64,000 nt of DNA, taken from contig JAJNNC010000007.1 of assembly GCA_021730635.1 (NCBI GenBank), positions 25,100 to 89,099 of the forward strand. The letters are read 5' to 3'. The notes beneath the pieces were generated by a model, which was given only the letters and a program-made list of their open reading frames with translations, had not been told where the DNA came from and ran no database searches. This DNA is from Catalimonadaceae bacterium JC749 (GTDB lineage: Bacteria > Bacteroidota > Bacteroidia > Cytophagales > Cyclobacteriaceae). Shown here one piece after another: positions 1,036 through 53,127 of this stretch. Positions within the stretch are counted from its first letter, which is position 1. Each line of letters begins with the position of its first letter. The translations under genes and the position numbers were made by a program.

Positions 1036-2757
1036 AATGTATATTCTCTCTCTTTCTTTCTAGCTTTCTGTTTGCTGATTGGTGCCAGTGCCAGGTCTAC
1101 CGCCCAGGACCTAACGGCCATAGGTGCCATAGGTCAGGAAAAAGCTTTTCAACTGTCTGGAGGTGTCACAGCTCATCAGACGCTTTATCATGCGCATGGC
1201 ATCGCCCAGAGGCGTGATCCTTACGCCTACTACTTATCTGGAAACCTCAACCTTGCCCTGTATGGCTGGAATATCCCTGTTTCTTTTATCTACTCCAATC
1301 AGCACTCTTCTTTCTCCCAGCCTTTTAACCGCTATGCGCTCCATCCTACTTATCACGGACTTACCGGCCACTTTGGCTATACCAGCATGACCTTCTCCAA
1401 CTACACCCTCAACGGACACCTCTTTCTAGGAGCAGGCATTGACTGGAACCCTGAGGGTAAATTACAGAAGCTCAGAATCTCGGCTATGTATGGACGTTTA
1501 CAAAAAGCCATAGTACCTGATACACTACTTAGAACCACAGAGCATCCTGCCTTTCGAAGAATGGGTTTTGGTTTGAAGATAGGCTATGGCACTGCCCATG
1601 ACTTCATAGATTTCATTTTATTTCATGCCTCAGATGACATGAACTCTCTCCCCTATATATTGGATTCACTGAGTATCTTGCCACAGGAAAACTTAGTGCT
1701 CGGCATTAACGCAGGAAAGACCCTAGCCAATAAACTAGTACTCAAAACAGAGTTTGCCAGTAGTGCGATAACCCGTGATATTCGGGCAAAGGAAAATAGC
1801 ACCGGTAGTATTTTCTCTCGCATGAGCAAACTTTATGTACCCAGACAGTCGTCATCTTATTATCACGCTTTCAAAGCAGGCATCACTTATCAAGGTGGGT
1901 TTTATACATTGGGTGCTGGATACGAAAGAATTGATCCTGGCTATCAAACCCTAGGAGCCTACTATTTTAACCAGGACTTAGAAAATATGACAGCCAATGG
2001 CACTATGAGTTTAATTAAAAACAAAGTAAATGTAAGTACACAAGTTGGAATACAACACAACAATCTTAAGCAGGATCAGATTAGCAGTATGCAACGACTG
2101 ATTGGCTCTATAAATATCAGTTACATGGCAACCCAGAAACTTAATATCCAGAGCACCTATTCCAATTTTCAAACCTTTACAAACTATCGGTCACCTTTTG
2201 AGCGAATTCATCAACTAACACCCTACGATGATTTGGATACGCTGGATTATACACAGCTTTCTCAAAGCTCTAATCTTTCTGTGGGTTATTTATTGTCAAA
2301 TAATGAAAAGGGCAGGCATTACATCCATACTAACTTATCTTGCCAAACGACCAGCGACCAGCAAGTGCAGACTGTGAGTACAAATTTCTATCATCTGAAT
2401 ACGATCTATAACTATCATGCTACACTTATCAGCACTAGAATTTCACTTGGTTTTAACGGTGCTAAGAATACTTCTCAAAATGTTCGATCTGTCACCTATG
2501 GCCCTACGATAGCAGTTAATAAGACTGCGTTTGATAAAAAGCTCATGAACACGCTGACCTCTTCCTGGAACACTACTTCCTCAGAAGCAAAATATGTGAA
2601 TCGTATCTGGAGCCTTCGCTTGAACAGTAAGTACACTTTGAAGAAAAAGCATCAATTTAACGTGAGTTTGGTAGGCATTAACCGAACCAATTTATCCAAT
2701 CAGGAAAAAAGTTTTACTGAATTAACAGGTACGCTAGGATATAGCTACCAATTTTAA
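1036..2757 (+). CDS. Predicted outer-membrane beta-barrel protein (signal peptide, C-terminal ...YSYQF)
   Basis: Track ORF 982..2757 begins at a GTG. An internal ATG at 1036 gives MYILSLSFFLAFCLLIGASARSTAQ, which is signal-peptide-like. The protein is Y/N/S/T/G-rich with alternating hydrophobic pattern and ends in aromatic Phe, typical of an OMP beta-signal. It lies 117 nt upstream of and co-directional with the giant-protein operon. Confidence 0.45.
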   Translation, partial: NVYSLSFFLAFCLLIGASARSTAQDLTAIGAIGQEKAFQLSGGVTAHQTLYHAHGIAQRRDPYAYYLSGNLNLALYGWNIPVSFIYSNQHSSFSQPFNRYALHPTYHGLTGHFGYTSMTFSNYTLNGHLFLGAGIDWNPEGKLQKLRISAMYGRLQKAIVPDTLLRTTEHPAFRRMGFGLKIGYGTAHDFIDFILFHASDDMNSLPYILDSLSILPQENLVLGINAGKTLANKLVLKTEFASSAITRDIRAKENSTGSIFSRMSKLYVPRQSSSYYHAFKAGITYQGGFYTLGAGYERIDPGYQTLGAYYFNQDLENMTANGTMSLIKNKVNVSTQVGIQHNNLKQDQISSMQRLIGSINISYMATQKLNIQSTYSNFQTFTNYRSPFERIHQLTPYDDLDTLDYTQLSQSSNLSVGYLLSNNEKGRHYIHTNLSCQTTSDQQVQTVSTNFYHLNTIYNYHATLISTRISLGFNGAKNTSQNVRSVTYGPTIAVNKTAFDKKLMNTLTSSWNTTSSEAKYVNRIWSLRLNSKYTLKKKHQFNVSLVGINRTNLSNQEKSFTELTGTLGYSYQF

Positions 2758-2873
2758 AATACAAACCCAGGGTTTCGCATCTGTGTAATAAATGATCTTA
2801 AAAGTGGCCACAAAAATGTATATAGCATTGCATCTTTGTAAGCCATTCATTTTACATAAACAGATAGATTGTT

Positions 2874-5800
2874 GTGAGCAGGTTTGTATTATTAATGATA
2901 GGCTGTATGGTAAGTTGTGTCCTTTATGGAAGCACAGCACCTATTACTTTCAAAAATATCCATCACTATGGAAGTATAAATATTGATAGAATTTCCCCAT
3001 TAGGTCCCTCCATCATTTACACCTCATCACCTTACCTCCCTGAATTACCCTTACATTTAGCGCGTCGTAAAAGCGCGAACTACTATCAGCCAGCTTTGGT
3101 CAGAGAGTTTGACCAACTGAACACCAGTCCACTACCAACCCCTACCCACGATATTCTTCCACTAACCAACGACCCAGCACCCGTATCACAAACGGTGGCA
3201 TATAGAGATCGTGCCTATACATTGTATGCACTGATTGAAGAGCAACAGCGCTATGTGGATGTCATAGATGCCAGAACCGTACTACAACTGCCTGTTGGTC
3301 TTAAGAAAACAATCGGTAACCTGGATTATACCATCCTTATCGATAGCATGATACTTACCCCTACCTACGCTTACCTTACTGCTTATATGTCATTTGAAAT
3401 TCCTCAAAACGGCGAAAGATTGGCTTTCAGAGGCACCCATATACGCTTCTCCAAAACCGGAGGATTAGAAGGAACAGCTCGCCTACAATTAATAGGGGAT
3501 CACACGCTTAACATGGGCCCGAAGACACTTATGACATTGAAAGGAGATGGCACTACCTATGTGGATTGGAATTGTAATGGTTTTACGCACATGGGAATAG
3601 GTGCAGAGATAGCTTTTTCTCGTGACTTATTGCTTCCCGATACGCTGACCGTTACCACAGGCACTGACAGAGTTAAAGCTCATTTCCGCACAACCTTGAA
3701 TCATTGGAATGATCTTATTGCTGAAGTGACCATAGATCCCTTTCAGATAAAGGCACTGAAAGGTGTAGGTTTTACCGTTCATAAAGCGATTATAGATTAT
3801 AGTGATCAGCGGAATCCCCCCAGTCTTAAATTTCCTGATGGCTACCAATCAGCACTGATTACAGCAGATAATCCGTATCTATGGCAGGGTTTCTATCTAC
3901 AGGAGATAGCTGTCAGACTACCTGATCAGTTTAAAAAGAAAGCCCGTCTTCAGGGTCGTATTGAATTTGCCGCATATGATGTATTGATTGACCCTATGGG
4001 TTTTAGCGGGACACTCTCTGTTAATAACCTTATCCAGTTAACAGAAGGCCATCTTAATGGATGGGCTTATTCCATAGATCAGTTTGCAATTGACATACAG
4101 GCCAATCAACTGGTGAGCGGTGGTTTTGGAGGAGACATTACAGTTCCTATTACCCAGAAAGATCAGACATTTGCTTACAATGCTTTCATCCATCCGGGTA
4201 ATGCTTACGTCTTTAATATTTCATCGACCGGAGCAGTAGCCTTTCCCTTGTGGCAAGCTAAACAGGTTGAACTCTACCCTGCCTCATACCTGGAAGTGAT
4301 GGTTCAGAACGAGAAGTTTTTACCCAAAGCCAACCTTCACGGAAAAATGTCTATCAATGTGGACCAGGAAAAACTGCAACTGGCCAATCTCGAATTTCAG
4401 GGATTAGAAGTGCAAACTATACAACCCTATGTCCAAATACAGGCTTTGTCTTTTGGAATAAAAGGAAAGAAGCAAAAGATGGGTGATTTTTCTCTGGCCA
4501 TTAACCATCTGGGAGTAAGCAGTCCGAATGAAGATGAACTTGCCCTTCAAATGAATGTGACAGTCAACCTGGTAGGTGAAGGAGAGGGTGGTTTCGGAGG
4601 GAAAGCCGGACTCTCACTAGTGGGTAAAGTGGTAGAAGATAACCATAGCCAACAGTGGCGGTATGATCATTTGGATATTGGTGAATTTGGAGTAAACGTC
4701 CATACTGGTGCCGTAAAAATCCAGGGAAGGCTAGCCTGGTTTAAAAAGGATATCATCTATGGTGATGGTATTCGAGGCGATGTACAACTGGAAATTATCA
4801 ACAAAATCCAGGTTCAGGCAATGGCTCTGTTCGGTACTGTTCATGACACCCGATACTGGTTTGCTGATGCACTGGCTTCTTTACCCCCAGGAATGGGCAC
4901 TGGAATTCAAATGACCCGTTTTGGCGGTGGTGCTTCCTATCATATGAAACAAACCCATCAAGACGGAAATTCCTTAGGCCAGTCACCCTCAGGCCTTGTA
5001 TATCTTCCCGACAAAAATGAAGGCTTAGCTGTAAAAGCGACCGTAGACATGGCAACAGCAGGTTCTGAAAAGGTATTTAATGGAGATGCTACGCTGGCTA
5101 TCAGCTTTAACAAGGGAAGTGGTATCAAAAAAGTATCGCTGTCAGGCAATGGTTATTTTATGACTCCTGCTTTAGAAACAAGCATGGCTGTTCTGCGAGA
5201 ACGTGCCGGAAAATTAGTGCATAATGTTTCCAACGCTCCTGTGAATTTTCTAGAACCTAAAGCTCAGGTAGCTGCCCGAGTTGAGATCAGCTATGACGTG
5301 CCGCAACAAACTTTTCATGGCAATTTTGAAGTCTATGTGAATGTAGCAGCAGGTATTATGCGAGGTGTTGGTAGCCGCAACCAGGCCGGATGGGCGGTGA
5401 TTCATTTCTCTCCTGAAAGCTGGTATGTGCATGTAGGAAATCCGGAAAATCCAATAGGCGTTCAAATTCTCAAGGTTATTAAGACCGAAACTTATTTTAT
5501 GGCAGGCGACTATATTCCGGGCAGTCCCCCTCCTCCGGAAAATGTTGCTGAAATTCTGGGTGGTATTGACCTGAATTACATGGCTTCGCTCAACGAACTG
5601 GAATCTGGAAGAGGTGTTGCTTTTGGCTCTCGCTTTGGTATGGATACAGGCGACCTTAACTTCCTGATGTTCTATGCCCGTTTTGCGGCTGGAATGGGCT
5701 TCGACGTGATGGTGAAAGATTACGGAGGCAGTCACTGTGTGGGACGTGAAGGTCCTATCGGTATCAATGGTTGGTATGCAAATGGACAAGCGTTTGCCTA

Positions 5801-7499
5801 TTTTGAAGGAGAAATTGGCATCAAAGTAAAAGTTTTTGGCGAGCAGAGGCAGTATGAGATTCTCAATATTGGTGCCGCTGCCGTATTACAGGCAAAAATG
5901 CCAAACCCTTTCTGGATGCAGGGCATAGTGGGTGGCAAATTCTCCATACTAGGCGGCATGGTCAAAGGTAATTGCCGATTTGAGGTAACGTTGGGAGAAA
6001 CATGCCAGCTTACCGAAGGTAGTGCATTGGAAGGGATCGCCGTTATTTCAGAGGTAACGCCCAGCCCTGATGAACATGAAGTCAGTGTTTTCAATGCAGC
6101 ACAAGGTGTATTCAACATGGAAGTGGGTAAAGTCTTTGACATGGTAGATGCCAATGAGCAAAAGAAATCATTTCGTATCCGGTTAGATCATTTTAAAGTG
6201 ATGAACGGTACTGCAGCAATTCCTGGAAAAGTAGAATGGAATGATGATCATACCGTAGCTGCTTTTCATACTACAGACATTTTGCCACCTCTAAAAGAAC
6301 TGCGTGCCTCTATTCAAGTGAGCTTTGAAGAAGAAAAGAATGGTATTTGGAAGCCTGTCGTTGTACGTGGCAAAAAAATTACTGAAAAGAAAGAAAGCAC
6401 TTTTACCACAAGCGAAGCCCCTGACTATATTCCATTAAGCAATGTAGCTTATAGTTACCCGCTGATAAACCAACTTAATTTCTATCAAAACGAAAGCAGA
6501 AAAGGGTACATACAATTGAAGAAAGGACAGCCCTATCTATTTAACATCTCTGGAGAATGGAAACAAAAGGGTAGATTTAGGTCGAAAGATGGCCATATTA
6601 AAACGTTTGATTTTCATTATAGCCATCAGCAAGTCAGCTTCACCATTCCCACCGGTTTACAGAAGGATCAAATCTATGCTTTTGAATTAGTAAATATTCC
6701 TGTAGTAGAAAAGGAAGCTATTGATGCTAACGTAAATTCGGTAAGCACAAAAGTGAAGGCTGAAGATACTTCCATAGACGCTGAGATAAAAACCAATCAG
6801 GCTGAAGGTTCTCTCACTGTCTTACAGGAAAAGCCTATCTTTACCACCTACATCAGAACCAGCCGGTATCATACTTTAAATGATAAGCTTAATAAAGCTT
6901 CCTTATCTCCAGGGATCAGGACTTATCTCAGACCTGCCGTGCATTACTTGGTACAGCACATAAACAGTGACGAATACTTTGATCAACCAGAACTCAATGG
7001 CAATCCAAAACAAAATATAAAGCCTCTGATCCAGTTGAAAGCAGATCTTTCTGAAAACCGATATTATCAGGATATCATCTATCCCCTGGTCTATGAAGGA
7101 TATCCGATGGTGCAGGATGCTACTATAAACTGGCGAGATACCCAGCGCTTAGGCATTGTTCCTGTCAAAGCAGTATATATTAGACAAGTTACAGGTGATA
7201 CAAGGTTTACCGAAAATGATCTTGCCATAAGATCAATTACGGATACCGTTCATCAAGCATCCTTTCTCTATAACCTTATTCACCATTATGAACGGGATTA
7301 TCACCAGATTCAAAATAAAGTGGCTGCCTATTACGCAGCAGAAAAAGGTGTTCCTAACGAAAGGGAAAGAAAGCTGCTGATGCATCCATTTCCTAAGATG
7401 ACCGGAGGTAAATATAATTTCAACATTACTTATGTCTTGCCAGGTACTGAGCAGAAGACTTCTATAAAAGTGATGACCATTCATAATCCTTTTGAGTAG
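2874..7499 (+). CDS. Giant secreted hypothetical protein (1541 aa), first of three coupled large genes
   Basis: Single uninterrupted 4.6 kb ORF with hydrophobic N-terminus (MSRFVLLMIGCMVSCVLYG). Start is GTG at 2874 or ATG at 2895. No recognisable catalytic motif. Its stop lies 1 nt before the next gene's ATG. Confidence 0.6.
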   Translation: MSRFVLLMIGCMVSCVLYGSTAPITFKNIHHYGSINIDRISPLGPSIIYTSSPYLPELPLHLARRKSANYYQPALVREFDQLNTSPLPTPTHDILPLTNDPAPVSQTVAYRDRAYTLYALIEEQQRYVDVIDARTVLQLPVGLKKTIGNLDYTILIDSMILTPTYAYLTAYMSFEIPQNGERLAFRGTHIRFSKTGGLEGTARLQLIGDHTLNMGPKTLMTLKGDGTTYVDWNCNGFTHMGIGAEIAFSRDLLLPDTLTVTTGTDRVKAHFRTTLNHWNDLIAEVTIDPFQIKALKGVGFTVHKAIIDYSDQRNPPSLKFPDGYQSALITADNPYLWQGFYLQEIAVRLPDQFKKKARLQGRIEFAAYDVLIDPMGFSGTLSVNNLIQLTEGHLNGWAYSIDQFAIDIQANQLVSGGFGGDITVPITQKDQTFAYNAFIHPGNAYVFNISSTGAVAFPLWQAKQVELYPASYLEVMVQNEKFLPKANLHGKMSINVDQEKLQLANLEFQGLEVQTIQPYVQIQALSFGIKGKKQKMGDFSLAINHLGVSSPNEDELALQMNVTVNLVGEGEGGFGGKAGLSLVGKVVEDNHSQQWRYDHLDIGEFGVNVHTGAVKIQGRLAWFKKDIIYGDGIRGDVQLEIINKIQVQAMALFGTVHDTRYWFADALASLPPGMGTGIQMTRFGGGASYHMKQTHQDGNSLGQSPSGLVYLPDKNEGLAVKATVDMATAGSEKVFNGDATLAISFNKGSGIKKVSLSGNGYFMTPALETSMAVLRERAGKLVHNVSNAPVNFLEPKAQVAARVEISYDVPQQTFHGNFEVYVNVAAGIMRGVGSRNQAGWAVIHFSPESWYVHVGNPENPIGVQILKVIKTETYFMAGDYIPGSPPPPENVAEILGGIDLNYMASLNELESGRGVAFGSRFGMDTGDLNFLMFYARFAAGMGFDVMVKDYGGSHCVGREGPIGINGWYANGQAFAYFEGEIGIKVKVFGEQRQYEILNIGAAAVLQAKMPNPFWMQGIVGGKFSILGGMVKGNCRFEVTLGETCQLTEGSALEGIAVISEVTPSPDEHEVSVFNAAQGVFNMEVGKVFDMVDANEQKKSFRIRLDHFKVMNGTAAIPGKVEWNDDHTVAAFHTTDILPPLKELRASIQVSFEEEKNGIWKPVVVRGKKITEKKESTFTTSEAPDYIPLSNVAYSYPLINQLNFYQNESRKGYIQLKKGQPYLFNISGEWKQKGRFRSKDGHIKTFDFHYSHQQVSFTIPTGLQKDQIYAFELVNIPVVEKEAIDANVNSVSTKVKAEDTSIDAEIKTNQAEGSLTVLQEKPIFTTYIRTSRYHTLNDKLNKASLSPGIRTYLRPAVHYLVQHINSDEYFDQPELNGNPKQNIKPLIQLKADLSENRYYQDIIYPLVYEGYPMVQDATINWRDTQRLGIVPVKAVYIRQVTGDTRFTENDLAIRSITDTVHQASFLYNLIHHYERDYHQIQNKVAAYYAAEKGVPNERERKLLMHPFPKMTGGKYNFNITYVLPGTEQKTSIKVMTIHNPFE

Positions 7500-7500
7500 T

Positions 7501-9603: not shown

Positions 9604-9609
9604 AAGCTT

Positions 9610-12600
9610 ATGTGGGGAATTATACGACATAGCATCTTCCTGGTCTTTGCAGTGGTCTTCAGTTTTCACAGCCAGGCTCAGCATTTTCCTGTACAAGTTG
9701 GTATCCAACTGCCCCCTCCTCATTCATTGTATCTTTCCGATTATGTAATACCTGGTAGTCACCGGCTTTCTGTGAACATCCTTCTTACAGAACTGGATCG
9801 TATCAATTACCCGGTTAGACTGCGAATCACTATAGAAGGAAATGGTATCCATATGCGTACCCGCGAAGGTTTTATGCCATCTCCTATGGAATTGCAGGGA
9901 GGTATGCTGGAAGTTTTGTCCGCTTCAGAGCTGGCCCCCTATTTTGATCCTCTCAATCTGCAAGTAAGTGGAGCAAACCAACATCAATTCACAAGAACAA
10001 CCCAGTTGCCTGAAGGATTTTACCGTTTTTGTATAGAAGTGTTGGATTATTATACGGGCACAACGGTCTCTAACTTTGCTTGTGCCAATGCATGGTTAAT
10101 TCTTAATGAACCACCCATCATCAACGTACCTCAAGCCAACGCCAAAGTCCGCGCACAGGAACCACAGCACTTAATATTTCAATGGTCACCCCGGCATATG
10201 GGAAGCCCGAATGCTGGTTTTACAACAGAGTATGAACTAACACTAGTAGAACTATGGCCTTCCAACCGTGACCCAAACGATGCTATACGCAGTACACCTC
10301 CTGTCTTTCAGACTACTACTTTGAATACCACTTTCATCTATGGAGTTGCTGAACCTGCTTTGCTGCCTGGACGTGCCTATGCTTTCCGGGTAAGGGCAAA
10401 AAGTATGGCAGGCGTAGATAAGCTAGCGCTATTCAAAAATCAGGGATATAGTGAAACTATTATGTTTACCTATGGGGAAGAATGTAGCCAACTCCAGCAG
10501 GTACAAGCGGAAGCTTTGAGTGCCACCCGTATTAAACTATCATGGCCCTCTGCTCCAGTCCATACCGCTTACATAGTCCGCTATAGGGAAGCCGGTAGAC
10601 CTCGTGCTCACTGGTTTGAAGAAACTACCTACCTGAATGATTTTACAATCAATTCTTTGAAACCTGATACTGAGTATGAATACCAGGTGAAAGGACTATG
10701 CGGTACAGTGAATGGAGACTACACCCATAACACTAGTATCCGTACTTTATCCCGAACAGAAAATGAACTGGTATGTGGCAAACCTTTTTCATCTTATGAC
10801 CTAAGCAATCCACTGTTACTGAAACTACTTTTCATAGGCGACTATGTATATGCTGGCGACTTTGATGTACAATTAACGGAAGTATGGGGTAGTAATGGCT
10901 TATTTTCAGGAGAAGGTATTGCTGAAATGCCCCTGTTGAATATGGCCAGAGTCAAAGTTCGCTTTGAGGGCATACATGTCAACACAGACTACCGCCTCAT
11001 TGACGGAAATATTTATGCGCTGACTGACCCATCTGGCAATGGTATTCTGAATTTGGATGAAGAAAGCATAGTCAAAGTCAAAGAGAAGGTACCAGAAGGA
11101 ACTGTTGATAAAAATGCAAAGGCAATCACCATACCCTATTTTGTAGATTCAGTATATGTCAATGAGCAAGGACAGATTACAGTTGTTGACACGCTTGGAA
11201 AAGAAGCACTTTATAAACAGGAAACTCATGAAAAGACAGGAAAGAAGAAAGATACGCATCTGACCGATAGCAGTGGCAAGCGTTGGTCAGTTGATAAAGA
11301 AGGTAATGTATCCGAGACAGAGACCAACAATAATGCTGATGCTACTGCCCAGGAAAAGCTTCCTGCTGACACTTTACCTGCATTGCAGAAAGCACCTCTA
11401 TTAGTGGAATTTACCTCCGACGAACATCAGCGACAATACGGGTACGATCCACCCAGAGAAAACTATGCACCCGTCTTTTATCCCACACAATCGCTATTAG
11501 GAGAAACCTTTCCTATAGGGTACAAAGCCCTGTCCAATGGTCGACCAGAATACTTAACCGCTCAATGGCAAGGTGCCGACAGTTTGAGTAATTACATCAC
11601 TTATCAGGCAGGCAGTTTCATGGTCAATACTTCCGGACAAGCAAGAGAAGGTAAACAAAGTCTGACCCTAATTGGCCTGGGTGATCAAGCAGAAGAACAG
11701 CTAACGGCTTATCAGAAAATCATCAATACTGGGGGCAAGGAAGAAGAAGTCATCACAGGTGCGCTTCACCTGAGCAGCTATGACCCTATCTTGGAACAAC
11801 TTGTCATAATTCCGGTAAACGACATTCACAATCCCTATTCTGTTACCCATCTGCAAAACAAACTGACTGACATATACTCCCAGGCAGTCGTCAGTTGGCA
11901 GGTGACTGAAGAAACAGCACTTCAAATCAACTGGGATGAAAATGGAGATGAGAAAGTGGATGATGGATTTAGTGGAACCTTCTCTAATTACACCCTGGAG
12001 ATGAAGAATATCCTGAAGGCGTACAAGAAGGTAAAAGGTTTTGATGATGACAAGTATTACCTCTTTCTGGTAGCAGGCAGTGAAAGTGGCCAGAAACAAG
12101 GCTATATGCCTCGTAAACGACAGGCAGGTTTTATTTTCCTGGATGCTAACAAAAGCGAAGACGAATTCCTCACTACCATAGCCCATGAATTAGGACATGG
12201 TGCCTATCGCCTGGAACATATTTTCAAAGAGAAAGGCAGCACCCCAGGGCAGACTGATAATCTGATGGATTATCGTGGAGGTACTTTTCTGCACAAGTAC
12301 CAATGGGATTATATTCACAACCCTATTCATATGATTGCCCTTTTTCAGGATGATGATGACGGCGCTTATGTTTCTGAAACTTTTGCCCAGGAGGTAGGGA
12401 GGCTGATCAACTTTATTAAATGCGGTGTTCAGAGAAACAAACCTGTAGTTGACGTCTATTATGGATACCACCGTTACGATATCCCACTCAAAGATATTCT
12501 GGCTGTATTAGATTTTGGCAATAAAGGATATTTAGCCTCAGACGCATTTAAAGAAACCAAACTGCATGTGGGCATTAGCGATGGTTTACCAGGATCCAGC

Positions 12601-14715
12601 TTTTTCTTTGGCTATAAAGAAACTCAGCTGAAGATAGGACAAGCTAAATATCCACATACGTATGGGTTATTCATTCCTGCCGTTCATGGGAACATCACTT
12701 TCAAAGTACCTGACGACACAGACCCCAAGACAAAAGAAAATATTTATAGATGGCTTTTACAGGAAACAGGACTTGATTATACCCATTCTTATAAAGCATT
12801 CAATGTTAACAAGGTCCTAGACTGGAAGGCTGAAGATATCTTCTTATTCTCTTATTGTGAGCTGGAACAATTTGACAGGTCAAGCAGAGAAAGACTTCTT
12901 GTAGACCTTCTTGACGAGCAGGAAGATTATGTAGGTCAGAATAAAGACACCTATCAAAAAGTGTTGCTCAATGTATTAAACACCATTCCTGCAGCGGATA
13001 AAACACACTTTTATAATCTGTTTTTAAGAAACCCACAATGGGTCAGAACGCTCTACCAGGGAGTTTCTGCTGAGAACAAACCTAAACTAGTAAAAGTATG
13101 GCTTGCCTTATGGACAGAACATTATCAGAACCATAAGCCCAACATTAGCTCTTCAGGGAAATTTATCATTACCAATAATATTTTTGGAAATGCCAGCGAC
13201 CTAGCTGTCATAAAGGATGACGGCAGGATTTTGTTTGCAGAACCCTACCAACACGGAAAAACGAGAGCCCCTATCTCCCTGCTCATCTCCCCTTTTGATC
13301 CTGTTTATCTCTACAAACCAGAGGTCGATGCAGATAAACCCTTTACCACCTTACCCGCCATAGCAGCAAAACTGTTCATTGACCAGCAACATAGCCAGAC
13401 ACTGGAAGATTTAGGATGGACGGCCATAGAAGCAAGCTTGTATACTGTAGGGATGGGTGAGGTATGGACAGGATTACGAGGTGCGGCGGCTGCTATGGAG
13501 TTAGGAGGTGTCGCCTCCCGTAAATTTCTGCTTAACAGCGCCCGAACGAGTTTAGGGTTCGCTGATATTGCCGCAGGCATCACAACCGGATTTTGCGAGG
13601 ATTATGCAGACAGTAAATTTTGTGCCGTCTGGCAAGAGTACCAATTTTATATTGATTTAGGATTACTTACAACTTCAGTAGCGGATGGGTTGTATAGCCG
13701 CTTACGTAGCGAATATAGCCATTTACATAGTGAATATAGCGAGGTAAGCGATGAATTGACCGATGCCCAGCGTATCTATCTGGAAGAAGAGTTGGGGTTG
13801 GTTTCAGATGGGGGAAGTGTAGCCAAAGCAGAGAATCATCTAGCAGCATTTACAGGTAAAATAACCAAAGGGGGAAACAACCTGCTTGACATTCCTTCAC
13901 CCGTTGGGCAATTCAGACAGCTAAAAGGGAAAAACGGAAAAATATATAGAGCAGCAGATTTTTGGAAGCAGCGCCATGAAGATTTTGTACATTACATAAG
14001 CCAGGATGGTAAGTACTATATCAAACACGATCCTATTACAGGAAGGATGTTATTTTTGGAGATTGAAAGTCAAAAGTTTTTAGGTTATTCCTTGGATGAA
14101 GCAAAATTTATCAAAGGCAATTATGATAAATTTCTAACCAGTCTTAAAACTATTCATGGTTTACCTGGGGGTTTGAAAGTTATAAAACTTAAAAACGGAG
14201 TTACTATTATTCTAAGTGATGATAAAGCCATCGTAATGCTTGGGAAGTATAGACCAAATGATATACCAGGTATAGCAGGCGAAGTAGGAACAGATGACAT
14301 TATTGAAGATCTTTCAATTTTAAAAAATTATTCTTTTGCTGATAATGGATTCGAATTACGCCCAGGAAGTCTACATGTTCTAAATATCCCGGATGGCTTG
14401 GTAGACGGAAAAATGAGAACCTGGGAAACTTTTTTTGAAGATTTTAACAAAGAACTTTTAGATTTAGTAATTAAAAACCCCTCAAAAGCTAAATTTGTAT
14501 TAGTAACTTATCCATATGATGAACTGATGTTTACATGGAAGAATGGCAGAAAAGATGTAAATATTAATAATGGTTTATTTATCCCAAGTGGATATGCCAA
14601 AGAACTTAAATATTTGAAGGAAAATGGCATAACTAAAATTCATTTGATAGACGGAAGTCTATTTGATTTGAATCAAATAAATTTAGATAACATGAGTTTT
14701 GACTGGACAATTTAG
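9610..14715 (+). CDS. Giant secreted multidomain protein (1701 aa) with central HExxH zincin-like motif and compositionally distinct C-terminal domain; putative polymorphic toxin
   Basis: Signal peptide MWGIIRHSIFLVFAVVFSFHSQAQ. N-terminal FN3-like segment (TEYEYQVKGLCGTVNGDY). IAHELGHGAYRLEHIF at nt ~12181-12230. The last ~800 nt are markedly AT-rich compared with the rest of the gene. It is followed 12 nt later by the paralog array. The 3' end is partially duplicated at 17590-17672. Confidence 0.6.
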   Translation: MWGIIRHSIFLVFAVVFSFHSQAQHFPVQVGIQLPPPHSLYLSDYVIPGSHRLSVNILLTELDRINYPVRLRITIEGNGIHMRTREGFMPSPMELQGGMLEVLSASELAPYFDPLNLQVSGANQHQFTRTTQLPEGFYRFCIEVLDYYTGTTVSNFACANAWLILNEPPIINVPQANAKVRAQEPQHLIFQWSPRHMGSPNAGFTTEYELTLVELWPSNRDPNDAIRSTPPVFQTTTLNTTFIYGVAEPALLPGRAYAFRVRAKSMAGVDKLALFKNQGYSETIMFTYGEECSQLQQVQAEALSATRIKLSWPSAPVHTAYIVRYREAGRPRAHWFEETTYLNDFTINSLKPDTEYEYQVKGLCGTVNGDYTHNTSIRTLSRTENELVCGKPFSSYDLSNPLLLKLLFIGDYVYAGDFDVQLTEVWGSNGLFSGEGIAEMPLLNMARVKVRFEGIHVNTDYRLIDGNIYALTDPSGNGILNLDEESIVKVKEKVPEGTVDKNAKAITIPYFVDSVYVNEQGQITVVDTLGKEALYKQETHEKTGKKKDTHLTDSSGKRWSVDKEGNVSETETNNNADATAQEKLPADTLPALQKAPLLVEFTSDEHQRQYGYDPPRENYAPVFYPTQSLLGETFPIGYKALSNGRPEYLTAQWQGADSLSNYITYQAGSFMVNTSGQAREGKQSLTLIGLGDQAEEQLTAYQKIINTGGKEEEVITGALHLSSYDPILEQLVIIPVNDIHNPYSVTHLQNKLTDIYSQAVVSWQVTEETALQINWDENGDEKVDDGFSGTFSNYTLEMKNILKAYKKVKGFDDDKYYLFLVAGSESGQKQGYMPRKRQAGFIFLDANKSEDEFLTTIAHELGHGAYRLEHIFKEKGSTPGQTDNLMDYRGGTFLHKYQWDYIHNPIHMIALFQDDDDGAYVSETFAQEVGRLINFIKCGVQRNKPVVDVYYGYHRYDIPLKDILAVLDFGNKGYLASDAFKETKLHVGISDGLPGSSFFFGYKETQLKIGQAKYPHTYGLFIPAVHGNITFKVPDDTDPKTKENIYRWLLQETGLDYTHSYKAFNVNKVLDWKAEDIFLFSYCELEQFDRSSRERLLVDLLDEQEDYVGQNKDTYQKVLLNVLNTIPAADKTHFYNLFLRNPQWVRTLYQGVSAENKPKLVKVWLALWTEHYQNHKPNISSSGKFIITNNIFGNASDLAVIKDDGRILFAEPYQHGKTRAPISLLISPFDPVYLYKPEVDADKPFTTLPAIAAKLFIDQQHSQTLEDLGWTAIEASLYTVGMGEVWTGLRGAAAAMELGGVASRKFLLNSARTSLGFADIAAGITTGFCEDYADSKFCAVWQEYQFYIDLGLLTTSVADGLYSRLRSEYSHLHSEYSEVSDELTDAQRIYLEEELGLVSDGGSVAKAENHLAAFTGKITKGGNNLLDIPSPVGQFRQLKGKNGKIYRAADFWKQRHEDFVHYISQDGKYYIKHDPITGRMLFLEIESQKFLGYSLDEAKFIKGNYDKFLTSLKTIHGLPGGLKVIKLKNGVTIILSDDKAIVMLGKYRPNDIPGIAGEVGTDDIIEDLSILKNYSFADNGFELRPGSLHVLNIPDGLVDGKMRTWETFFEDFNKELLDLVIKNPSKAKFVLVTYPYDELMFTWKNGRKDVNINNGLFIPSGYAKELKYLKENGITKIHLIDGSLFDLNQINLDNMSFDWTI

Positions 14716-14726
14716 TTATATCAGCT

Positions 14727-15104
14727 ATGAAAACAGGATTTTACAGATCTCAGGTTGTTGAAGTGGAAGATAATTATGGCGGTGTAGTATATAAAAAAGC
14801 TGCGCACTATTACATCGCCTTTGTTGACTCCAACAACATATATATGATTCTTTCATCTTCAAAAGGTGAGCCTAAAATGTCTGTTTTATTATCATCTTCA
14901 GCATTGATGGATATTAAAGGATCTATTACGAAAGAGAATGAAATCACTGTTGAGATTACCTTTTACAATCCTTTCTTAAAAACCAGGGAAATATTTACAG
15001 GTAAAAAAGAAGGGGATAAGCTTTACTTGAAAGCGCATCGTGAAAACAAACCAGAAGAAATCTTTCTTGACGATGTTTTTGAGTATATCGGCACAGGAGA
15101 ATAG
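14727..15104 (+). CDS. Small paralog 1 of tandem family (125 aa); candidate cognate immunity protein
   Basis: MKTGFYRSQVVEVEDNYGGV...ITVEITFYNPFLKTREIFTGKKEGDKLYLKAHRENKPEEIFLDDVFEYIGTGE. It shares N-terminal (G.Y[RK]S..E.DNYG[GA]) and C-terminal (F.GK.EG..L.LK..R...PE.....YEY[IV]GT.E) motifs with 7 other ORFs in the array. Confidence 0.6.
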   Translation: MKTGFYRSQVVEVEDNYGGVVYKKAAHYYIAFVDSNNIYMILSSSKGEPKMSVLLSSSALMDIKGSITKENEITVEITFYNPFLKTREIFTGKKEGDKLYLKAHRENKPEEIFLDDVFEYIGTGE

Positions 15105-15121
15105 TCAGAAGCAATAACACT

Positions 15122-15520
15122 ATGAAAAAAGGACTGTATAAGAGCATCAGAGAGTCTAAAGGAGAAGACAATTACGGTGCTAATACCTTCACTGTTTACA
15201 TACGAAATTACTTACTATTTGTAGACAATGAGGTATTTAAATTTTCTATTAGTGGTTATAAGGAAAATTATGATGACCAAGAAGATTTAAGTAACCAACT
15301 AAAAAGTAATAAACATCCTTATCAAGGTCAGGTAGAAAGTTTTGATGAGAGTAAGATTAAATTTCATCTGATAGATAATTTCTTAGATGATAAGATCATT
15401 TTTGAGGGTAAAGCAGAAGGAGAGCGATTTCAGGTAAAGCGCTATAGAGTCTATAAGCCAGAAGCGATCATAGAAGAGACTTATGAATATGTGGGCACTC
15501 TTGAAGATCTTACCAGTTGA
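15122..15520 (+). CDS. Small paralog 2 (132 aa)
   Basis: MKKGLYKSIRESKGEDNYGANTF...KIIFEGKAEGERFQVKRYRVYKPEAIIEETYEYVGTLEDLTS. About 85% identical to the ORF at 18088. Confidence 0.6.
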   Translation: MKKGLYKSIRESKGEDNYGANTFTVYIRNYLLFVDNEVFKFSISGYKENYDDQEDLSNQLKSNKHPYQGQVESFDESKIKFHLIDNFLDDKIIFEGKAEGERFQVKRYRVYKPEAIIEETYEYVGTLEDLTS

Positions 15521-15585
15521 AAAAGATCAACCAATTGTATTAACAGACAAAATAGGGTTTGTCTGAACAAACTTGCTATACTTTT

Positions 15586-16020
15586 ATGAAAATAGGTATA
15601 TATAGAAGCATCAGAGAGTCTAAAGGAGAAGACAATTATGGGGCTAACGTCTTCACTATTTATAGACGCACTTACTTGGTTTTTATTGAAAATGAAGTGT
15701 TTAGCTTCTCCACCACCGGGTATAAGCATGATTTTGACGATCAAGATCAGGTAAGTAAACAACTAAAGAAAGCAAATGCAGTATTAAGGGATAAAGATTT
15801 TGTAATCCAGAATAAAATCTCTTCTCTTGAGGATGAAAATATCAAATTCTACTTAGTAGATAATTCTCTCCAAGACAAGATAATTTTTGAAGGTAAAGCA
15901 GAAGGTGAGCAACTTCATTTAAAACGTTACAGAGTTTCCCAGCCTGAAGCAGTCACAGAAAATACATATCAATACCTAGGCACATTGGAAGAAATGACCA
16001 GATTGTTTAAGGCGGATTAG
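15586..16020 (+). CDS. Small paralog 3 (~144 aa from ATG 15586; track ORF from 15559)
   Basis: MKIGIYRSIRESKGEDNYGANVF...IIFEGKAEGEQLHLKRYRVSQPEAVTENTYQYLGTLEEM. It is 100% identical to the ORF at 18525..18986. Confidence 0.6.
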   Translation: MKIGIYRSIRESKGEDNYGANVFTIYRRTYLVFIENEVFSFSTTGYKHDFDDQDQVSKQLKKANAVLRDKDFVIQNKISSLEDENIKFYLVDNSLQDKIIFEGKAEGEQLHLKRYRVSQPEAVTENTYQYLGTLEEMTRLFKAD

Positions 16021-16172
16021 AAGCTTTGATTGTTGCTGGAAACATATTAGTAAAAAGTAATCTGTTGCTTCTGTAAATCAAGAATAGATTTAATAAACCT
16101 TTTAATGAGATTAATTTCCAGCTCTTCAGGTAATCTTAAATAAATCAATTGATTCTTTGGAAGCTTTGATGA

Positions 16173-16610
16173 GTGAAGAAATTTTATTTCTTAAAAAGCC
16201 TGCTTTTATCTATTTACACCAATAAATTTCAAGTTATGATAGTGAAAAACGGGGTTTATTGTTCAATGCAAAAAAAGGAAACAGAAGAGGTTCATGGTGG
16301 TGTAACTTTACAAGACAGTTACTACCATCATATCTGCTTTTATTTTCCTGAAAACCTAGTTGGTTTTTATGGAGGTGGTAGGTTATGGTTTGCTCCTTAC
16401 TCCAGAAGAAACTTTAGATACAGCGGAGAAATTGGTAAGGTTGAAAATAATCAAATTGAATTTTCTATCATAGATCCTTACAACAATGATAAAATTCATT
16501 TTACTGGGATTGAAGAAGGAGATCAACTACAGATTAAAGCTGTAAGAAACAGTGAACCTGATAAAATATGGCTTGAAGGTACTTTTGAGTATATCGGCAC
16601 AGGAGAATAA
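16173..16610 (+). CDS. Small paralog 4 (start possibly ATG 16236)
   Basis: C-terminal family motif KIHFTGIEEGDQLQIKAVRNSEPDKIWLEGTFEYIGTGE. The N-terminus is divergent (MIVKNGVYCSMQKKETEEVHGG). Confidence 0.5.
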   Translation: MKKFYFLKSLLLSIYTNKFQVMIVKNGVYCSMQKKETEEVHGGVTLQDSYYHHICFYFPENLVGFYGGGRLWFAPYSRRNFRYSGEIGKVENNQIEFSIIDPYNNDKIHFTGIEEGDQLQIKAVRNSEPDKIWLEGTFEYIGTGE

Positions 16611-16725
16611 TTAACACTATGATCATATGATTGAAAGAAACTATCAAATTAAAAACGGATAATAGAACCATATTTCTCACAAGAATATCTGCAAAGTAAT
16701 ATTTGTTTTTGACACTTTCTTTCTA

Positions 16726-17151
16726 ATGTCTCTGTCAATCAAAATACCTAAAAATGGATTATTTAGATGCATAAAAGATACTTCTGTTGAGTATCATGCA
16801 TCTTCATTTTTTATTAATAAGGATGTTTCCTATTTAAAATTCCTTCCAAACGATCGCGCTATACTCTTTAGCAGAAGCGAGGGGAAGAGACCGGACGATG
16901 AAGATTATTTTAAATTGTATCATAAAATGGAATTACTTCAACAAGCTGAAACTTTTGAGATTTCAGCAGTTAGTTGGAATGACAATATTATCAAATTGCG
17001 ATCGCTTAGCAATGAAGCTTCCTACAATTGCATGCCTTCCTGTTTTATAGAATCTGCGTTAGCAGAAAAAAATATCACAGAACTACTGCTTGATAAGAAT
17101 CTCTCTAATGAAAAGCCTCATATCTATCAGTTTGTATCTGTAAAAAGCTGA
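16726..17151 (+). CDS. Small ORF in array, unrelated to the main paralog family (141 aa)
   Basis: MSLSIKIPKNGLFRCIKDTSVEYH... lacks the family N- and C-terminal motifs. Size, AT content and orientation match the array. Confidence 0.4.
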   Translation: MSLSIKIPKNGLFRCIKDTSVEYHASSFFINKDVSYLKFLPNDRAILFSRSEGKRPDDEDYFKLYHKMELLQQAETFEISAVSWNDNIIKLRSLSNEASYNCMPSCFIESALAEKNITELLLDKNLSNEKPHIYQFVSVKS

Positions 17152-17188
17152 CTTTTAAGTCCGAAACTTGTAACTCTAAGTTGATCAA

Positions 17189-17590
17189 ATGTTAAAAGAA
17201 TCTATATACCGAACTACAAAGGCACTTGAAAGCATAGATAATTATGGAGGTAATGCTTTCAAAAGATATGGCTATTGGTATTTATACTTTGACCAAAATA
17301 ATAAAGTATACCTATTTTCAACTGAAGGGTATGATCCTGAATTTGATGATAAAGAGCAGCTAAAAGAAATAGATAATCTCATAGAGTTTTCTCATCAAGG
17401 AGAATTAGTGGGTTTTTCGGATGGTAAAGTCAAGTTTTTTATCGACGAATTCTACTTTGGTAGGACTAATTATTCAGGAACTTTAAAAGGTAGCCAACTT
17501 AATTTAAAGCATTATAGAGAATCTGAGCCTGAAAAGGTAAATGATGAAATATATTTGTATATAGGCACTCCTGAAGATTATGTTTCATAG
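17189..17590 (+). CDS. Small paralog 6 (133 aa)
   Basis: MLKESIYRTTKALESIDNYGGNAF...NYSGTLKGSQLNLKHYRESEPEKVNDEIYLYIGTPEDYVS. Confidence 0.55.
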   Translation: MLKESIYRTTKALESIDNYGGNAFKRYGYWYLYFDQNNKVYLFSTEGYDPEFDDKEQLKEIDNLIEFSHQGELVGFSDGKVKFFIDEFYFGRTNYSGTLKGSQLNLKHYRESEPEKVNDEIYLYIGTPEDYVS

Positions 17591-17672
17591 ATTTTTTCAA
17601 CAAGTTCATTTGTTGGCCGGTGACTTACTTATCTGAAACAGATAGATTTAGATAACATGAGTTTTGACTGGA
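17590..17672 (+). pseudogene. Decayed remnant of the 3' end of the giant gene 9610..14715 (orphan toxin-tip fragment)
   Basis: 17619-17672 translates to ...YLKQIDLDNMSFDWTN*, against the gene C terminus ...NQINLDNMSFDWTI*. Weaker nucleotide similarity (ttcatttg.t.g.c.gg) extends back to ~17600, with in-frame stops. Confidence 0.55.
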
Positions 17673-17691
17673 CAAATTGACCATATTAGCT

Positions 17692-18069
17692 ATGAAAAAA
17701 GGATTTTACAGATCTCAGGTTGTTGAAGTGGAAGATAATTATGGCGGTGTTACATTTAATGTAAAAAGTTATTATCATCTGGGCTTTATTGATGAACAAA
17801 GAGTATTTTCAATATTGACTGAAGGTGAGGGTATCCCAAATTGGAGATTGTTTGAAAAAGAATTTGATAAACTTGATAATAAAGGAGCTATTACGATAGA
17901 GAATGAAAATACTGTTGAGATTACCTTTTACAATCCTTTCTTAAAAACCAGGGAAATATTTACAGGTAAAAAAGAAGGGGATAAGCTATACTTGAAAGCG
18001 CATCGTGAAAACAAACCGGACGAAGTCTTTCTTGACGATGTTTTTGAATATATCGGCACAGGAGAATAG
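17692..18069 (+). CDS. Small paralog 1' (duplicate of 14727 with diverged middle)
   Basis: MKKGFYRSQVVEVEDNYGGV...ITVEITFYNPFLKTREIFTGKKEGDKLYLKAHRENKPDEVFLDDVFEYIGTGE. The termini are near-identical to paralog 1 and the centre is different. Confidence 0.6.
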   Translation: MKKGFYRSQVVEVEDNYGGVTFNVKSYYHLGFIDEQRVFSILTEGEGIPNWRLFEKEFDKLDNKGAITIENENTVEITFYNPFLKTREIFTGKKEGDKLYLKAHRENKPDEVFLDDVFEYIGTGE

Positions 18070-18087
18070 TCAGTAATATTAAAAGTT

Positions 18088-18486
18088 ATGAAAAAAGGAG
18101 TATATAAGAGCATCAAAGATTCTGAAGGAGAAGACAATTACGGTGCTAACGCCTTCACTGTTTACATACGAAACTACTTACTATTTGTAGACGATGAGGT
18201 GTTTAAATTTTCTACCAGTAGTTCTGAAAAGAATTATGATGACCGTAAACATCTAAGCAAAAAGTTAATGAACAAAAAATACCCCTATCAAGGTCAGGTA
18301 GAAAGTTTTGATGAGAGTAAGATTAAATTTCATCTGATAGATAATTTCTTAGATGATAAGATCATCTTTGAGGGCAAAGCGGAAGGTGAGCGATTTCAGG
18401 TAAAGCGCTATAGAGTCTATAAGCCAGAAGCGATCATAGAAGAGACTTATGAATATGTGGGCACTCTTGAAGATCTTACCAGTTGA
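18088..18486 (+). CDS. Small paralog 2' (132 aa)
   Basis: Near-identical to 15122..15520 over the C-terminal two-thirds. Confidence 0.6.
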   Translation: MKKGVYKSIKDSEGEDNYGANAFTVYIRNYLLFVDDEVFKFSTSSSEKNYDDRKHLSKKLMNKKYPYQGQVESFDESKIKFHLIDNFLDDKIIFEGKAEGERFQVKRYRVYKPEAIIEETYEYVGTLEDLTS

Positions 18487-18551
18487 AAAAGATCAACCAA
18501 TTGTATTAACAGACAAAATAGGGTTTGTCTGAACAAACTTGCTATACTTTT

Positions 18552-18986
18552 ATGAAAATAGGTATATATAGAAGCATCAGAGAGTCTAAAGGAGAAGACA
18601 ATTATGGGGCTAACGTCTTCACTATTTATAGACGCACTTACTTGGTTTTTATTGAAAATGAAGTGTTTAGCTTCTCCACCACCGGGTATAAGCATGATTT
18701 TGACGATCAAGATCAGGTAAGTAAACAACTAAAGAAAGCAAATGCAGTATTAAGGGATAAAGATTTTGTAATCCAGAATAAAATCTCTTCTCTTGAGGAT
18801 GAAAATATCAAATTCTACTTAGTAGATAATTCTCTCCAAGACAAGATAATTTTTGAAGGTAAAGCAGAAGGTGAGCAACTTCATTTAAAACGTTACAGAG
18901 TTTCCCAGCCTGAAGCAGTCACAGAAAATACATATCAATACCTAGGCACATTGGAAGAAATGACCAGATTGTTTAAGGCGGATTAG
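18552..18986 (+). CDS. Small paralog 3' (identical copy of 15586..16020)
   Basis: Identical protein. Identical antisense ORFs in the track (15481..15762 and 18447..18728) confirm identity at nucleotide level. Confidence 0.6.
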   Translation: MKIGIYRSIRESKGEDNYGANVFTIYRRTYLVFIENEVFSFSTTGYKHDFDDQDQVSKQLKKANAVLRDKDFVIQNKISSLEDENIKFYLVDNSLQDKIIFEGKAEGEQLHLKRYRVSQPEAVTENTYQYLGTLEEMTRLFKAD

Positions 18987-19061
18987 CCTTATGGCATTGT
19001 TGAAATACCTATCCACCACAAAGCATCTATTCCATCAGCAATCTTAACCAAGTCTCCGTAC

Positions 19062-19083
19062 AGGGCAGTTTCTGCCTTTTTTT
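19062..19083 (+). terminator. Rho-independent terminator candidate after the paralog array
   Basis: aGGGCAG-ttt-CTGCCt followed by TTTTTTT (19077-19083), 76 nt after the last array gene. Confidence 0.5.
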
Positions 19084-53124: not shown

Positions 53125-53127
53125 TAA

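Follow-up and report, generated by a model that had tools for sequence, protein, structure and literature searches.

We propose that the locus described here is a polymorphic toxin system of the TANFOR class in a Cytophagales-type genome, in which a giant secreted protein (T) has three conserved partners (O, G and F) and is followed by an array of small immunity paralogs. We give this reading a probability of about 0.7, on the basis of homology, the modularity of T, the co-variation of toxin and immunity genes, synteny and a predicted barrel fold. The locus lies in a stretch of 64,000 nucleotides (the window), and in its ORF list the genes are closely packed and all on the + strand:

982-2757, + strand: O, predicted outer-membrane beta-barrel, 591 aa, GTG start
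2874-7499, + strand: G, 1541-aa secreted protein of a conserved unannotated family, with a signal peptide only and no CTD
7492/7501-9603, + strand: F, 703/700 aa, secreted, FN3 repeats
9610-14715, + strand: T, 1701 aa, assigned to the TANFOR-type polymorphic toxins
14727-18986, + strand: small-gene array, nine small AT-rich paralogous ORFs, 125-153 aa as listed
19062-19088, + strand: terminator-like hairpin (19062-19078) and T-run, likely 3' end of the transcription unit

The spacing is 116 nt between O and G, 6 nt between F and T and 11 nt between T and small gene 1; G and F are 1 nt apart if F starts at the ATG at 7501, or overlap by 8 nt with the start at 7492. These ORFs and gaps bear out the layout drawn in an earlier note on this DNA, namely a barrel, giant secreted proteins and a small-gene array. 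That note began O at 1036, which we keep as an alternative start (~1021/1036; the NCBI call is 578 aa) to the GTG at 982 used here. On the left the unit is flanked by hemA, which is encoded on the opposite strand, and between hemA and the terminator-like site lie O, G, F, T and the array, and nothing else. The terminator-like hairpin is a pattern match of a kind whose number does not exceed shuffle expectation; a sigma-70 promoter scan likewise gave counts not above those of shuffles, and Bacteroidota promoters differ from the sigma-70 pattern. GC content falls from ~0.42-0.45 to 0.31-0.35 over ~14000-19000, and the drop begins within the 3' end of T. Each of O, G, F and T has one N-terminal hydrophobic segment and no further one, while the small proteins have none.

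Judged by its sequence, T belongs, as a divergent member, to the TANFOR-domain polymorphic toxins of Bacteroidota and is not a new toxin class. TANFOR toxins were first described in 2020 by Jana, Salomon and Bosis (PMC7073777). They are defined by a Sec signal, C-terminal toxins that vary and immunity genes downstream, and experiments on one of them showed its C-terminal domain to be a toxin and the downstream gene product to be the matching immunity protein (PMC7073777). T itself is divided as follows:

9610-12339, + strand: N-terminal block, aa 1-~910, with signal peptide, TANFOR-like domain, FN3 and zincin
aa 1-24, + strand: signal peptide, a hydrophobic segment at aa 1-19 followed by ...SQAQ
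9700-10080, + strand: TANFOR-like domain, aa 31-157, TIGR02542 region
10492-10731, + strand: FN3, aa 295-374 (Pfam)
12184-12219, + strand: zincin motif HELGHGAYRLEH (HExxH), aa 859-870
12313-13770, + strand: middle module, aa ~902-1387, common to few relatives only
13771-14715, + strand: C-terminal module, aa ~1388-1701, putative toxin domain of an unannotated family, low GC

More than 300 homologs, spanning ~53 % of T (~900 N-terminal residues), are 35-49 % identical to its N-terminal region over ~900 aa (or ~500 aa), and many of them carry the JGI name TANFOR. The TIGR02542 model reaches 12.6 bits (E 0.095) on aa 31-157 of T and 32-41 bits (E 1e-8 to 1e-10) at the same position in T homologs, in both cases under its curated cut-off of 67. 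As judged by hydrophobicity, the single N-terminal segment of T is that of a Sec signal peptide. At their C-termini the homologs bear a wide range of Pfam domains: AHH, WHH with Colicin-DNase, EndoU, Endonuclease_NS_2, PT-HINT, M15_4, M23 and GH108. The HExxH...H pattern is near-invariant among them, and the zincin segment of T gives a Peptidase_M78 match of 23.3 bits when searched in isolation. A common ~900-aa N-terminus joined to many different toxin C-termini upholds the earlier note's view of a polymorphic toxin/immunity locus; the new toxin class that it also proposed has to be given up, the N-terminal trafficking region of T being that of the toxins published in 2020.

Beyond this shared region T is a mosaic, with a junction at ~aa 1340-1390 that coincides with the GC drop. 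The middle module, which has no Pfam match and is Gly/Ala-rich and moderately hydrophobic at aa ~1275-1330, is 42 % identical to P0002 and 30 % to P0004, both of which have other C-termini, and it is absent from P0003. P0002 has aa 902-1387 of T with a different C-terminus, whereas P0003 and a Zobellia protein match the C-terminus only. The C-terminal module is rare (11 homologs) and comprises a ~280-aa conserved domain in which acidic and lysine motifs are invariant; the module matched neither a Pfam family nor a PDB fold. Because its structural model is of moderate confidence and lacks a fold match, no activity can be named for it.

The gene that follows this module varies with it, a co-variation check that the earlier note had proposed. 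Members of the small-gene family directly follow homologs of the C-terminal module in four other, independent contexts, among them L083, L081/L082 and L084 (E 5e-19 to 2e-12), and the two also occur as a stand-alone pair adjoining an Imm49 gene. In contrast, the gene downstream of P0002, with its different C-terminus, is unrelated to the family. A 168-aa gene after the Zobellia homolog was considered as a member and set aside for lack of a detectable tie (E 0.36-0.48). The family itself counts only 42 clusters among 1.84 billion, none annotated; it is not the housekeeping family that could have undone the immunity reading. These results suggest that small gene 1 is likely the cognate immunity protein, predicted to be cytoplasmic. 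The array is composed as follows:

14727-15104, + strand: small gene 1, 125 aa, no signal peptide
15122-15520, + strand: small gene 2, paralog of gene 1
15586-16020, + strand: small gene 3, paralog of gene 1
16236-16610, + strand: small gene 4, paralog of gene 1
16726-17151, + strand: small gene 5, most divergent paralog
17189-17590, + strand: small gene 6, paralog of gene 1
17602-17681, + strand: toxin 3' relic, frameshifted last ~26 codons (...LDNMSFDWT), before gene 7
17692-18069, + strand: small gene 7, duplicate of gene 1
18088-18486, + strand: small gene 8, duplicate of gene 2
18552-18986, + strand: small gene 9, duplicate of gene 3

For genes 3, 4, 7 and 9 the likely true start is the ATG at 15586, 16236, 17692 and 18552, respectively. 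In alignments, genes 2-6 are 16-33 % identical to gene 1. Eight of the nine genes had been taken for paralogs; all nine are, gene 5 joining the family with E 0.004 and 7e-6. A 1.4-kb duplication enlarged the array and took with it a frameshifted remnant of the 3' end of the toxin gene. Genes 1-3 and 7-9 form a segmental duplication (14636-16020 versus 17602-18986) that is 89.6 % identical over 1400 nt and identical in the last ~570 nt by DNA alignment (repeat families D1-D5). Gene 9 is identical to gene 3, while gene 7, which has diverged in its centre, retains 67 % identity to gene 1. Both DNA alignment and translations place the relic at 17602-17681 against the toxin 3' end at 14636-14715.

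Pfam, NCBIfam, PADLOC and PDB-sequence searches with O, G, the small genes and the middle and C-terminal modules of T, queried singly and also as profiles or member sets, gave nothing past FN3 (Pfam matches in F and in T) and the marginal zincin motif. In particular, Pfam and NCBIfam agree with the earlier note that the locus proteins have no match to hemagglutinin, Rhs/YD, PAAR, T9SS CTD or toxin families; the putative C-terminal toxin domain and the immunity family are both unannotated. O has a signal peptide, ~26 predicted strands, a C-terminal ...GYSYQF beta-signal and no Pfam match. Modelled with confidence as a barrel of ~26 strands, O resembles usher, TBDT and MtrB pores, with neither a plug nor POTRA or Omp85 features in model or Pfam search. 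A chaperone-usher pore was rejected, the model being barrel-only without plug or N/C domains and the unit having no chaperone-type gene. G has no Pfam, NCBIfam or PDB match; its homologs, 28-49 % identical and with many invariant G/P/W/Y/C columns in the alignment, occur in TANFOR loci of Cytophagales, Chitinophaga and Flavobacteriaceae. A single-linkage cluster merge had suggested that G and T are paralogs, which hhalign ruled out. Homologs of F (30-55 % identical) directly follow G in related loci, and F always adjoins G.

The neighbourhoods of relatives tie these genes to T. Of 71 related loci, 62 have O immediately before T, and of the 32 wide loci 25 have G or F close by, an association that spans three classes; reciprocal look-ups succeeded in all three cases. 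The gene after T is a singleton in 51 of 64 loci. A strict O-G-F-T machine is not proven, because the order of the four genes differs among loci and both G and F are missing within 10 kb in 7 of the 32 wide loci. By sequence and synteny, O, G and F are conserved uncharacterised envelope partners of TANFOR toxins and may be export machinery.

It is conceivable, though doubtful, that T is instead a non-canonical T9SS substrate, held on SprB-like filaments by O, G and F as surface or gliding-track accessories comparable to SprC/SprD/SprF. In 12 of the 32 wide loci the cassette adjoins T9SS-type genes encoding SprB-repeat and Por_Secre_tail (f3), FG-GAP and CHU_C (f6) or PorP_SprF and OmpA (f7) proteins, which would suit a part for T9SS either in place of a dedicated route or alongside one. 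The order G-F-SprB-like-O may recall sprC-sprD-sprB-sprF. The adjacency to T9SS cargo is far less steady than that of O and T, however, and the window unit from hemA to the terminator-like site has no T9SS cargo or PorP gene. Neither Por_Secre_tail nor CHU_C/TIGR04131 matches O, G, F or T at E<=0.1, so T, G and F are without a type-A or type-B CTD, two domains that f3 and f6, the neighbours in related loci, readily show; T ends in a variable toxin module; and a divergent PorP/SprF identity for O was dismissed, the two profiles aligning with an hhalign probability of 0.8 %. The study of 2020 did not settle how the toxins are exported but speculated on T9SS; it found SprB, CTD, Fn3 and PKD enriched and T9SS in >95 % of TANFOR genomes (PMC7073777).

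Two other readings fare worse. The gene grammar of an OMP, a giant protein with a variable C-terminus and immunity genes, together with the duplicated immunity block and its toxin 3' relic, would suit a disguised type Vb, CDI-like two-partner system with O as a divergent TpsB and T as a CdiA-like exoprotein. We consider this very improbable: the ~26-strand model of O without POTRA stands against the 16-strand Omp85 barrel of TpsB, and T has neither a TPS domain nor hemagglutinin repeats, so the CdiB-CdiA(-CdiI) analogy of the earlier note fails at both proteins. Membership among Rhs/YD or PAAR toxins was also rejected, no such repeats or PAAR being found. Hardly more probable is that T is no toxin at all but an adhesin or protease at the cell surface whose binding tip varies, the small genes then encoding unrelated proteins of the cytoplasm, or chaperones. 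The C-terminal module has no recognisable toxin fold or activity, and FN3 domains and a zincin motif would fit such a protein; against this, homologs of T bear bona fide nuclease and cell-wall hydrolase toxin domains at the same position, a TANFOR C-terminal domain and downstream gene have proved to be toxin and immunity protein (PMC7073777), and here module and small gene co-vary, even as a stand-alone pair.

Under the TANFOR toxin reading, Sec would take T to the periplasm. Its N-terminal region (TANFOR, FN3 and HExxH zincin) would serve as a conserved trafficking and stalk part, and its C-terminal module as an exchangeable, horizontally acquired toxin. The ~26-strand barrel O, with secreted G and F, may carry T across the outer membrane or anchor it there, displaying it on the cell surface. 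The zincin domain might then set the C-terminal module free to act in the target-cell cytoplasm. The nine cytoplasmic small proteins would be immunity paralogs, with gene 1 likely neutralising the toxin of its own locus; the others, arisen by duplication and divergence, may guard against related toxins of neighbours. A bolder version, which we put forward only tentatively, is that O, G and F form an undescribed T9SS-independent outer-membrane apparatus dedicated to the export and display of TANFOR toxins, delivering here a toxin with a new fold and activity; if true, Bacteroidota would have a new two-partner-like secretion route with a ~26-strand barrel at its core.

TANFOR toxins occur widely among Bacteroidota, both environmental and host-associated, and the sole published proposal for their export is the speculative link to T9SS (PMC7073777). 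Because O, G and F all lack known domains, they are invisible to domain-based neighbourhood analysis. O, almost always directly upstream of the toxin gene, and G and F, usually nearby, are concrete candidates for knock-out and structure work, and the open export question is therefore directly testable. The locus also provides an unannotated putative toxin/immunity pair, a ~280-aa domain with a ~130-aa cytoplasmic partner family, and a clear example of immunity-array growth by a duplication carrying a toxin 3' fragment.

Among known systems, chaperone-usher pores have a plug, N- and C-terminal usher domains and a chaperone gene, all missing for O, and the MtrB sheath barrel has cytochrome partners that O lacks; the likeness of O to usher and MtrB, at 7-13 % sequence identity, is one of fold only. 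CdiB-CdiA-CdiI shares with the window an OMP gene beside a giant variable-tip protein, a cognate immunity gene and extra copies with a toxin 3' relic, whereas the window has two further conserved secreted partners, G and F. The SprB operon is echoed in related loci, where the series of G, F, a SprB-repeat CTD protein and O resembles its two accessories, giant adhesin and OMP; the window differs in having no SprB-like gene or CTD, and O is not PorP/SprF-like by profile. The closest likeness is to the TANFOR toxins (PMC7073777), which are confined to Bacteroidota and combine a Sec signal, a TANFOR region with FN3, exchangeable C-terminal toxin modules and an immunity gene directly downstream; related loci adjoin SprB/CTD T9SS cargo as they do. 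The window T is too divergent for the TIGR02542 threshold or the 1e-7 criterion of that study, its order O-G-F-T is a minority arrangement, and its C-terminal module and immunity family are absent from the published list (AHH, WHH, EndoU, NUC, BaCT, PoNe and others). Nor does that study (PMC7073777) describe an immunity array of nine genes, the conserved zincin motif or the conserved partners O, G and F, and by our sequence comparisons it is the conservation of these three partners across TANFOR toxin loci that is new here.

The locus encodes a member of the TANFOR class of polymorphic toxins together with candidate immunity genes and three partner genes. Class membership is shown by homology. 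The analysis also demonstrates modularity, toxin/immunity co-variation, array duplication, synteny of the four large genes (O, G, F, T) and a modeled barrel fold for O. The gene layout described in the earlier note is borne out, with four co-directional plus-strand genes followed by nine small open reading frames:

982-2757, plus strand: O, predicted outer-membrane barrel protein, 591 aa
2874-7499, plus strand: G, predicted secreted protein, 1541 aa
7492/7501-9603, plus strand: F, predicted secreted protein with FN3 repeats, about 700 aa
9610-14715, plus strand: T, TANFOR-type protein, 1701 aa
14727-18986, directly after T: small ORFs 1-9, candidate immunity genes, 125-153 aa each

Intergenic gaps are 116 nt (O-G), 1 nt (G-F), 6 nt (F-T) and 11 nt (T-gene 1). 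The left-hand neighbor of the unit is hemA, encoded on the opposite strand, and its right-hand end is a terminator-like hairpin (19062-19078). GC content falls to 0.31-0.35 across about 14000-19000, with the onset within the 3' end of T. A single hydrophobic segment, N-terminal in position, is present in each of O, G, F and T, and none is found in the products of small genes 1-9. Pfam and NCBIfam searches of the locus proteins return only FN3 (F and T) and a weak zincin motif (T).

T has more than 300 homologs of 940-2258 aa, almost all of which align only to its first ~53 %. Pfam domains at their C-termini include AHH, WHH with Colicin-DNase, EndoU, Endonuclease_NS_2 and PT-HINT/Hint_2 as well as Peptidase_M15_4, M23 and GH108 with PG_binding_3, among others, and many of the homologs are labeled "TANFOR domain-containing protein" by JGI. 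TANFOR-domain proteins have been defined as a polymorphic toxin class of Bacteroidetes (Jana, Salomon and Bosis 2020, PMC7073777); one TANFOR C-terminal domain, BaCT, is a DNase by experiment and is neutralised by the product of the downstream gene (PMC7073777). The NCBIfam TANFOR model matches T with an E value of only 0.095 (aa 31-157), whereas homologs of T match at the equivalent position with E values of 1e-8 to 1e-10, which by transitive homology identifies T, from its sequence, as a divergent member of the class. The 1e-7 criterion used in PMC7073777 would have missed T. The polymorphic toxin/immunity reading of the earlier note is supported by TANFOR homology, the modularity of T and toxin/immunity co-variation; its proposal of a new toxin class finds no support, the class having been published in 2020 (PMC7073777).

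In an alignment of 24 homologs, conservation reaches to about aa 910 of T and a HELGHxxxxxxH motif (aa 859-870) is nearly invariant. Taken alone, the segment carrying this zincin motif just attains the Peptidase_M78 threshold. Other polymorphic toxins have releasing peptidases and, by analogy, this segment may cut off the C-terminal module (aa ~1388-1701).

The remainder of T is modular. The middle module (aa 902-1387) is common to two relatives with other C-termini, P0002 (42 % identity) and P0004 (30 %). Residues 1339-1700 are common to P0003 (44 %), a relative without the middle module, and to a TANFOR protein of Zobellia uliginosa (37 %) whose N-terminus is merely 31 % identical to that of T. 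The module junction (aa ~1340-1390) falls together with the drop in GC content. In 5.8 billion sequences the C-terminal module finds only 11 more homologs, most of them encoded by stand-alone genes (207-346 aa). Conservation of its core is strong, the motifs DDK, LGKYxPN, GExGTDD, KNYSFAD, VLNIPD and FFxxxNK being invariant, and the module has no match in Pfam, PADLOC or PDB sequences. An AlphaFold model (pLDDT 71.5) predicts a beta-rich region and, after it, an alpha/beta region.

The nine small genes all belong to one family, in which gene 5 is a divergent member. This family is a rare one, with 42 of 1.84 billion representative clusters. The proteins in it have 100-210 aa and are all annotated "hypothetical", and no Pfam or PDB-sequence match exists for the family. 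These properties exclude the housekeeping family that the earlier note had set against an immunity function.

We compared the type of C-terminal module with the identity of the next downstream gene in related loci. A stand-alone homolog of the module in locus L083 is followed by a 134 aa member of the small-gene family (E 5e-19), as is the one located after an Imm49 gene in L081/L082 (154 aa, E 2e-12). P0003, a TANFOR protein with the same module, precedes a 148 aa member (L084, E 2e-18) and this locus has a second, truncated small-gene copy. P0002, which has the same N-terminus and middle module as T but a different C-terminus, is followed by an unrelated 211 aa gene (L085). The co-variation of toxin tip and downstream gene proposed earlier holds in these loci. 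For the Zobellia homolog (L076), similarity of the next gene (168 aa) to the family is undetectable. In the set of 80 related loci, 51 of the 64 genes scored directly downstream of T are family singletons, a hypervariability expected for immunity genes. The putative toxin module and the candidate immunity family are unannotated members of the TANFOR class.

At L081:7127-9385 and L082:3243-5504, the module homolog and its small partner lie directly after the Imm49 immunity gene and a gene for a 1055 aa protein, an arrangement that resembles an orphan array of toxin and immunity genes belonging to a different polymorphic toxin locus. The partner ORF in L081, L083 and L084 begins with MEVL/MEIL and overlaps the toxin 3' end by 13 nt, compared with a gap and an MKTG/MKKG start in the window (14715-14727).

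The array has grown by segmental duplication. Positions 14636-16020 and 17602-18986 are 89.6 % identical, with the last ~570 nt being the same. The repeat begins 80 nt inside T, so that 17602-17681, before gene 7, is a frameshifted relic of the last codons of the toxin gene. Relics of this kind are a typical feature of orphan toxin/immunity cassettes. The centers of gene 1 (14800-14900) and gene 7 (17765-17865) share only about 40 % DNA identity against ~90 % for the rest, a mosaic pattern which suggests that this segment has recombined or diversified.

The 80 related loci come from Cytophagales, Chitinophaga and Flavobacteriaceae, and homologs are 34-50 % (O), 28-49 % (G) and 30-55 % (F) identical to the proteins of the window. 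O lies at most two genes upstream of T in 62 of 71 loci, and G or F is found in 25 of the 32 loci with wide flanks. Conversely, O homologs picked independently of T have a TANFOR-type protein and small genes downstream in 3 of 3 cases. The genes most often run O-T-[variable small genes]-(f4)-G-F; G-F-f3-O-T and O-T(476 aa)-G-F-f3 also occur, and loci with the O-G-F-T order of the window are in the minority. Neither O nor G matches a Pfam family or a PDB sequence, even with many members or profiles included. A PorP/SprF-like identity for O was ruled out (hhalign probability 0.8 %).

Relatives vary in several further respects. A conserved family of ~308 aa (f4), with a weak DUF5847 match only, separates the variable small genes from G in 17 loci (for example L017:14434-15357) and is missing from the window. 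Small genes of the 23S_rRNA_IVP (four-helix-bundle) or PDDEXK_3 type are repeatedly inserted between O and T (L004, L007, L011, L014, L047, L057, L084, L086 and others), though not in the window. In the Fulvivirga-type loci L051:9983-21385 and L061:9974-21377 the TANFOR gene encodes just 475-476 aa (TANFOR and FN3, no toxin), with G, F and an SprB/CTD protein immediately downstream, a toxin-less or split cassette. O homologs of Flavobacteriaceae (L059, L063-L080) have 800-838 aa versus 570-600 aa in Cytophagales, that is ~230 extra residues.

The secretion route of TANFOR proteins was left open in PMC7073777, with T9SS speculated, and the TANFOR literature searched describes no export apparatus. 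T9SS-linked export or display of T is still a viable explanation: neighbors with SprB-repeat and Por_Secre_tail (f3), FG-GAP and CHU_C (f6) or PorP_SprF and OmpA (f7) recur in 12 of the 32 wide loci, reproducing an observation of PMC7073777. However, the unit in the window contains no gene of these types, T, G and F are without a CTD, and O is a far more constant neighbor than T9SS cargo is. Outside the unit, the window has no T9SS genes and is ordinary chromosomal context.

Elsewhere in the window, 25929-33085 (minus strand) looks like a two-gene module, encoding a 1642 aa protein with DUF3686 ('ATPase involved in DNA repair'), DUF7902 and an AAA domain, then a 722 aa protein with no Pfam family; PADLOC gave no match. 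At 33501-34854 (minus strand) and 35527-36324 (plus strand), two overlapping ORFs without Pfam family, one with a weak JetC/MukB-like PADLOC match (E 2e-4), lie beside an HTH_3 and Peptidase_S24 (LexA/CI-like) repressor gene. Planctomycete-type PSCyt1 and PSD1-5 (DUF1585/1587/1588/1592/1595) proteins are encoded at 51643-56453 (minus strand) in a genome that otherwise looks like Cytophagales.

The mechanism with the best support is that O, G, F and T are exported by Sec, that O forms a wide barrel in the outer membrane, and that O, G and F together would export or anchor T. In this scheme the N-terminal region of T, rich in FN3, would be a stalk and the zincin domain may free the C-terminal module by proteolysis. 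Because the immunity proteins have no signal peptides, the module would exert its toxicity in the cytoplasm of the target cell, presumably in a contact-dependent manner. The product of gene 1 would protect the producer by neutralisation and its paralogs may widen this protection.

The conserved O-G-F set appears to be undescribed in the literature searched; O and G are both unmentioned in PMC7073777, where the enrichment analysis was limited to known domains. The set provides a concrete handle for testing TANFOR toxin export. A confident model of O (pLDDT 83.7) predicts a barrel of ~26 strands without plug or periplasmic domain, and its C-terminus is a typical aromatic beta-signal. In this model O resembles large translocation and sheath barrels, a likeness at the level of fold and not of family membership.
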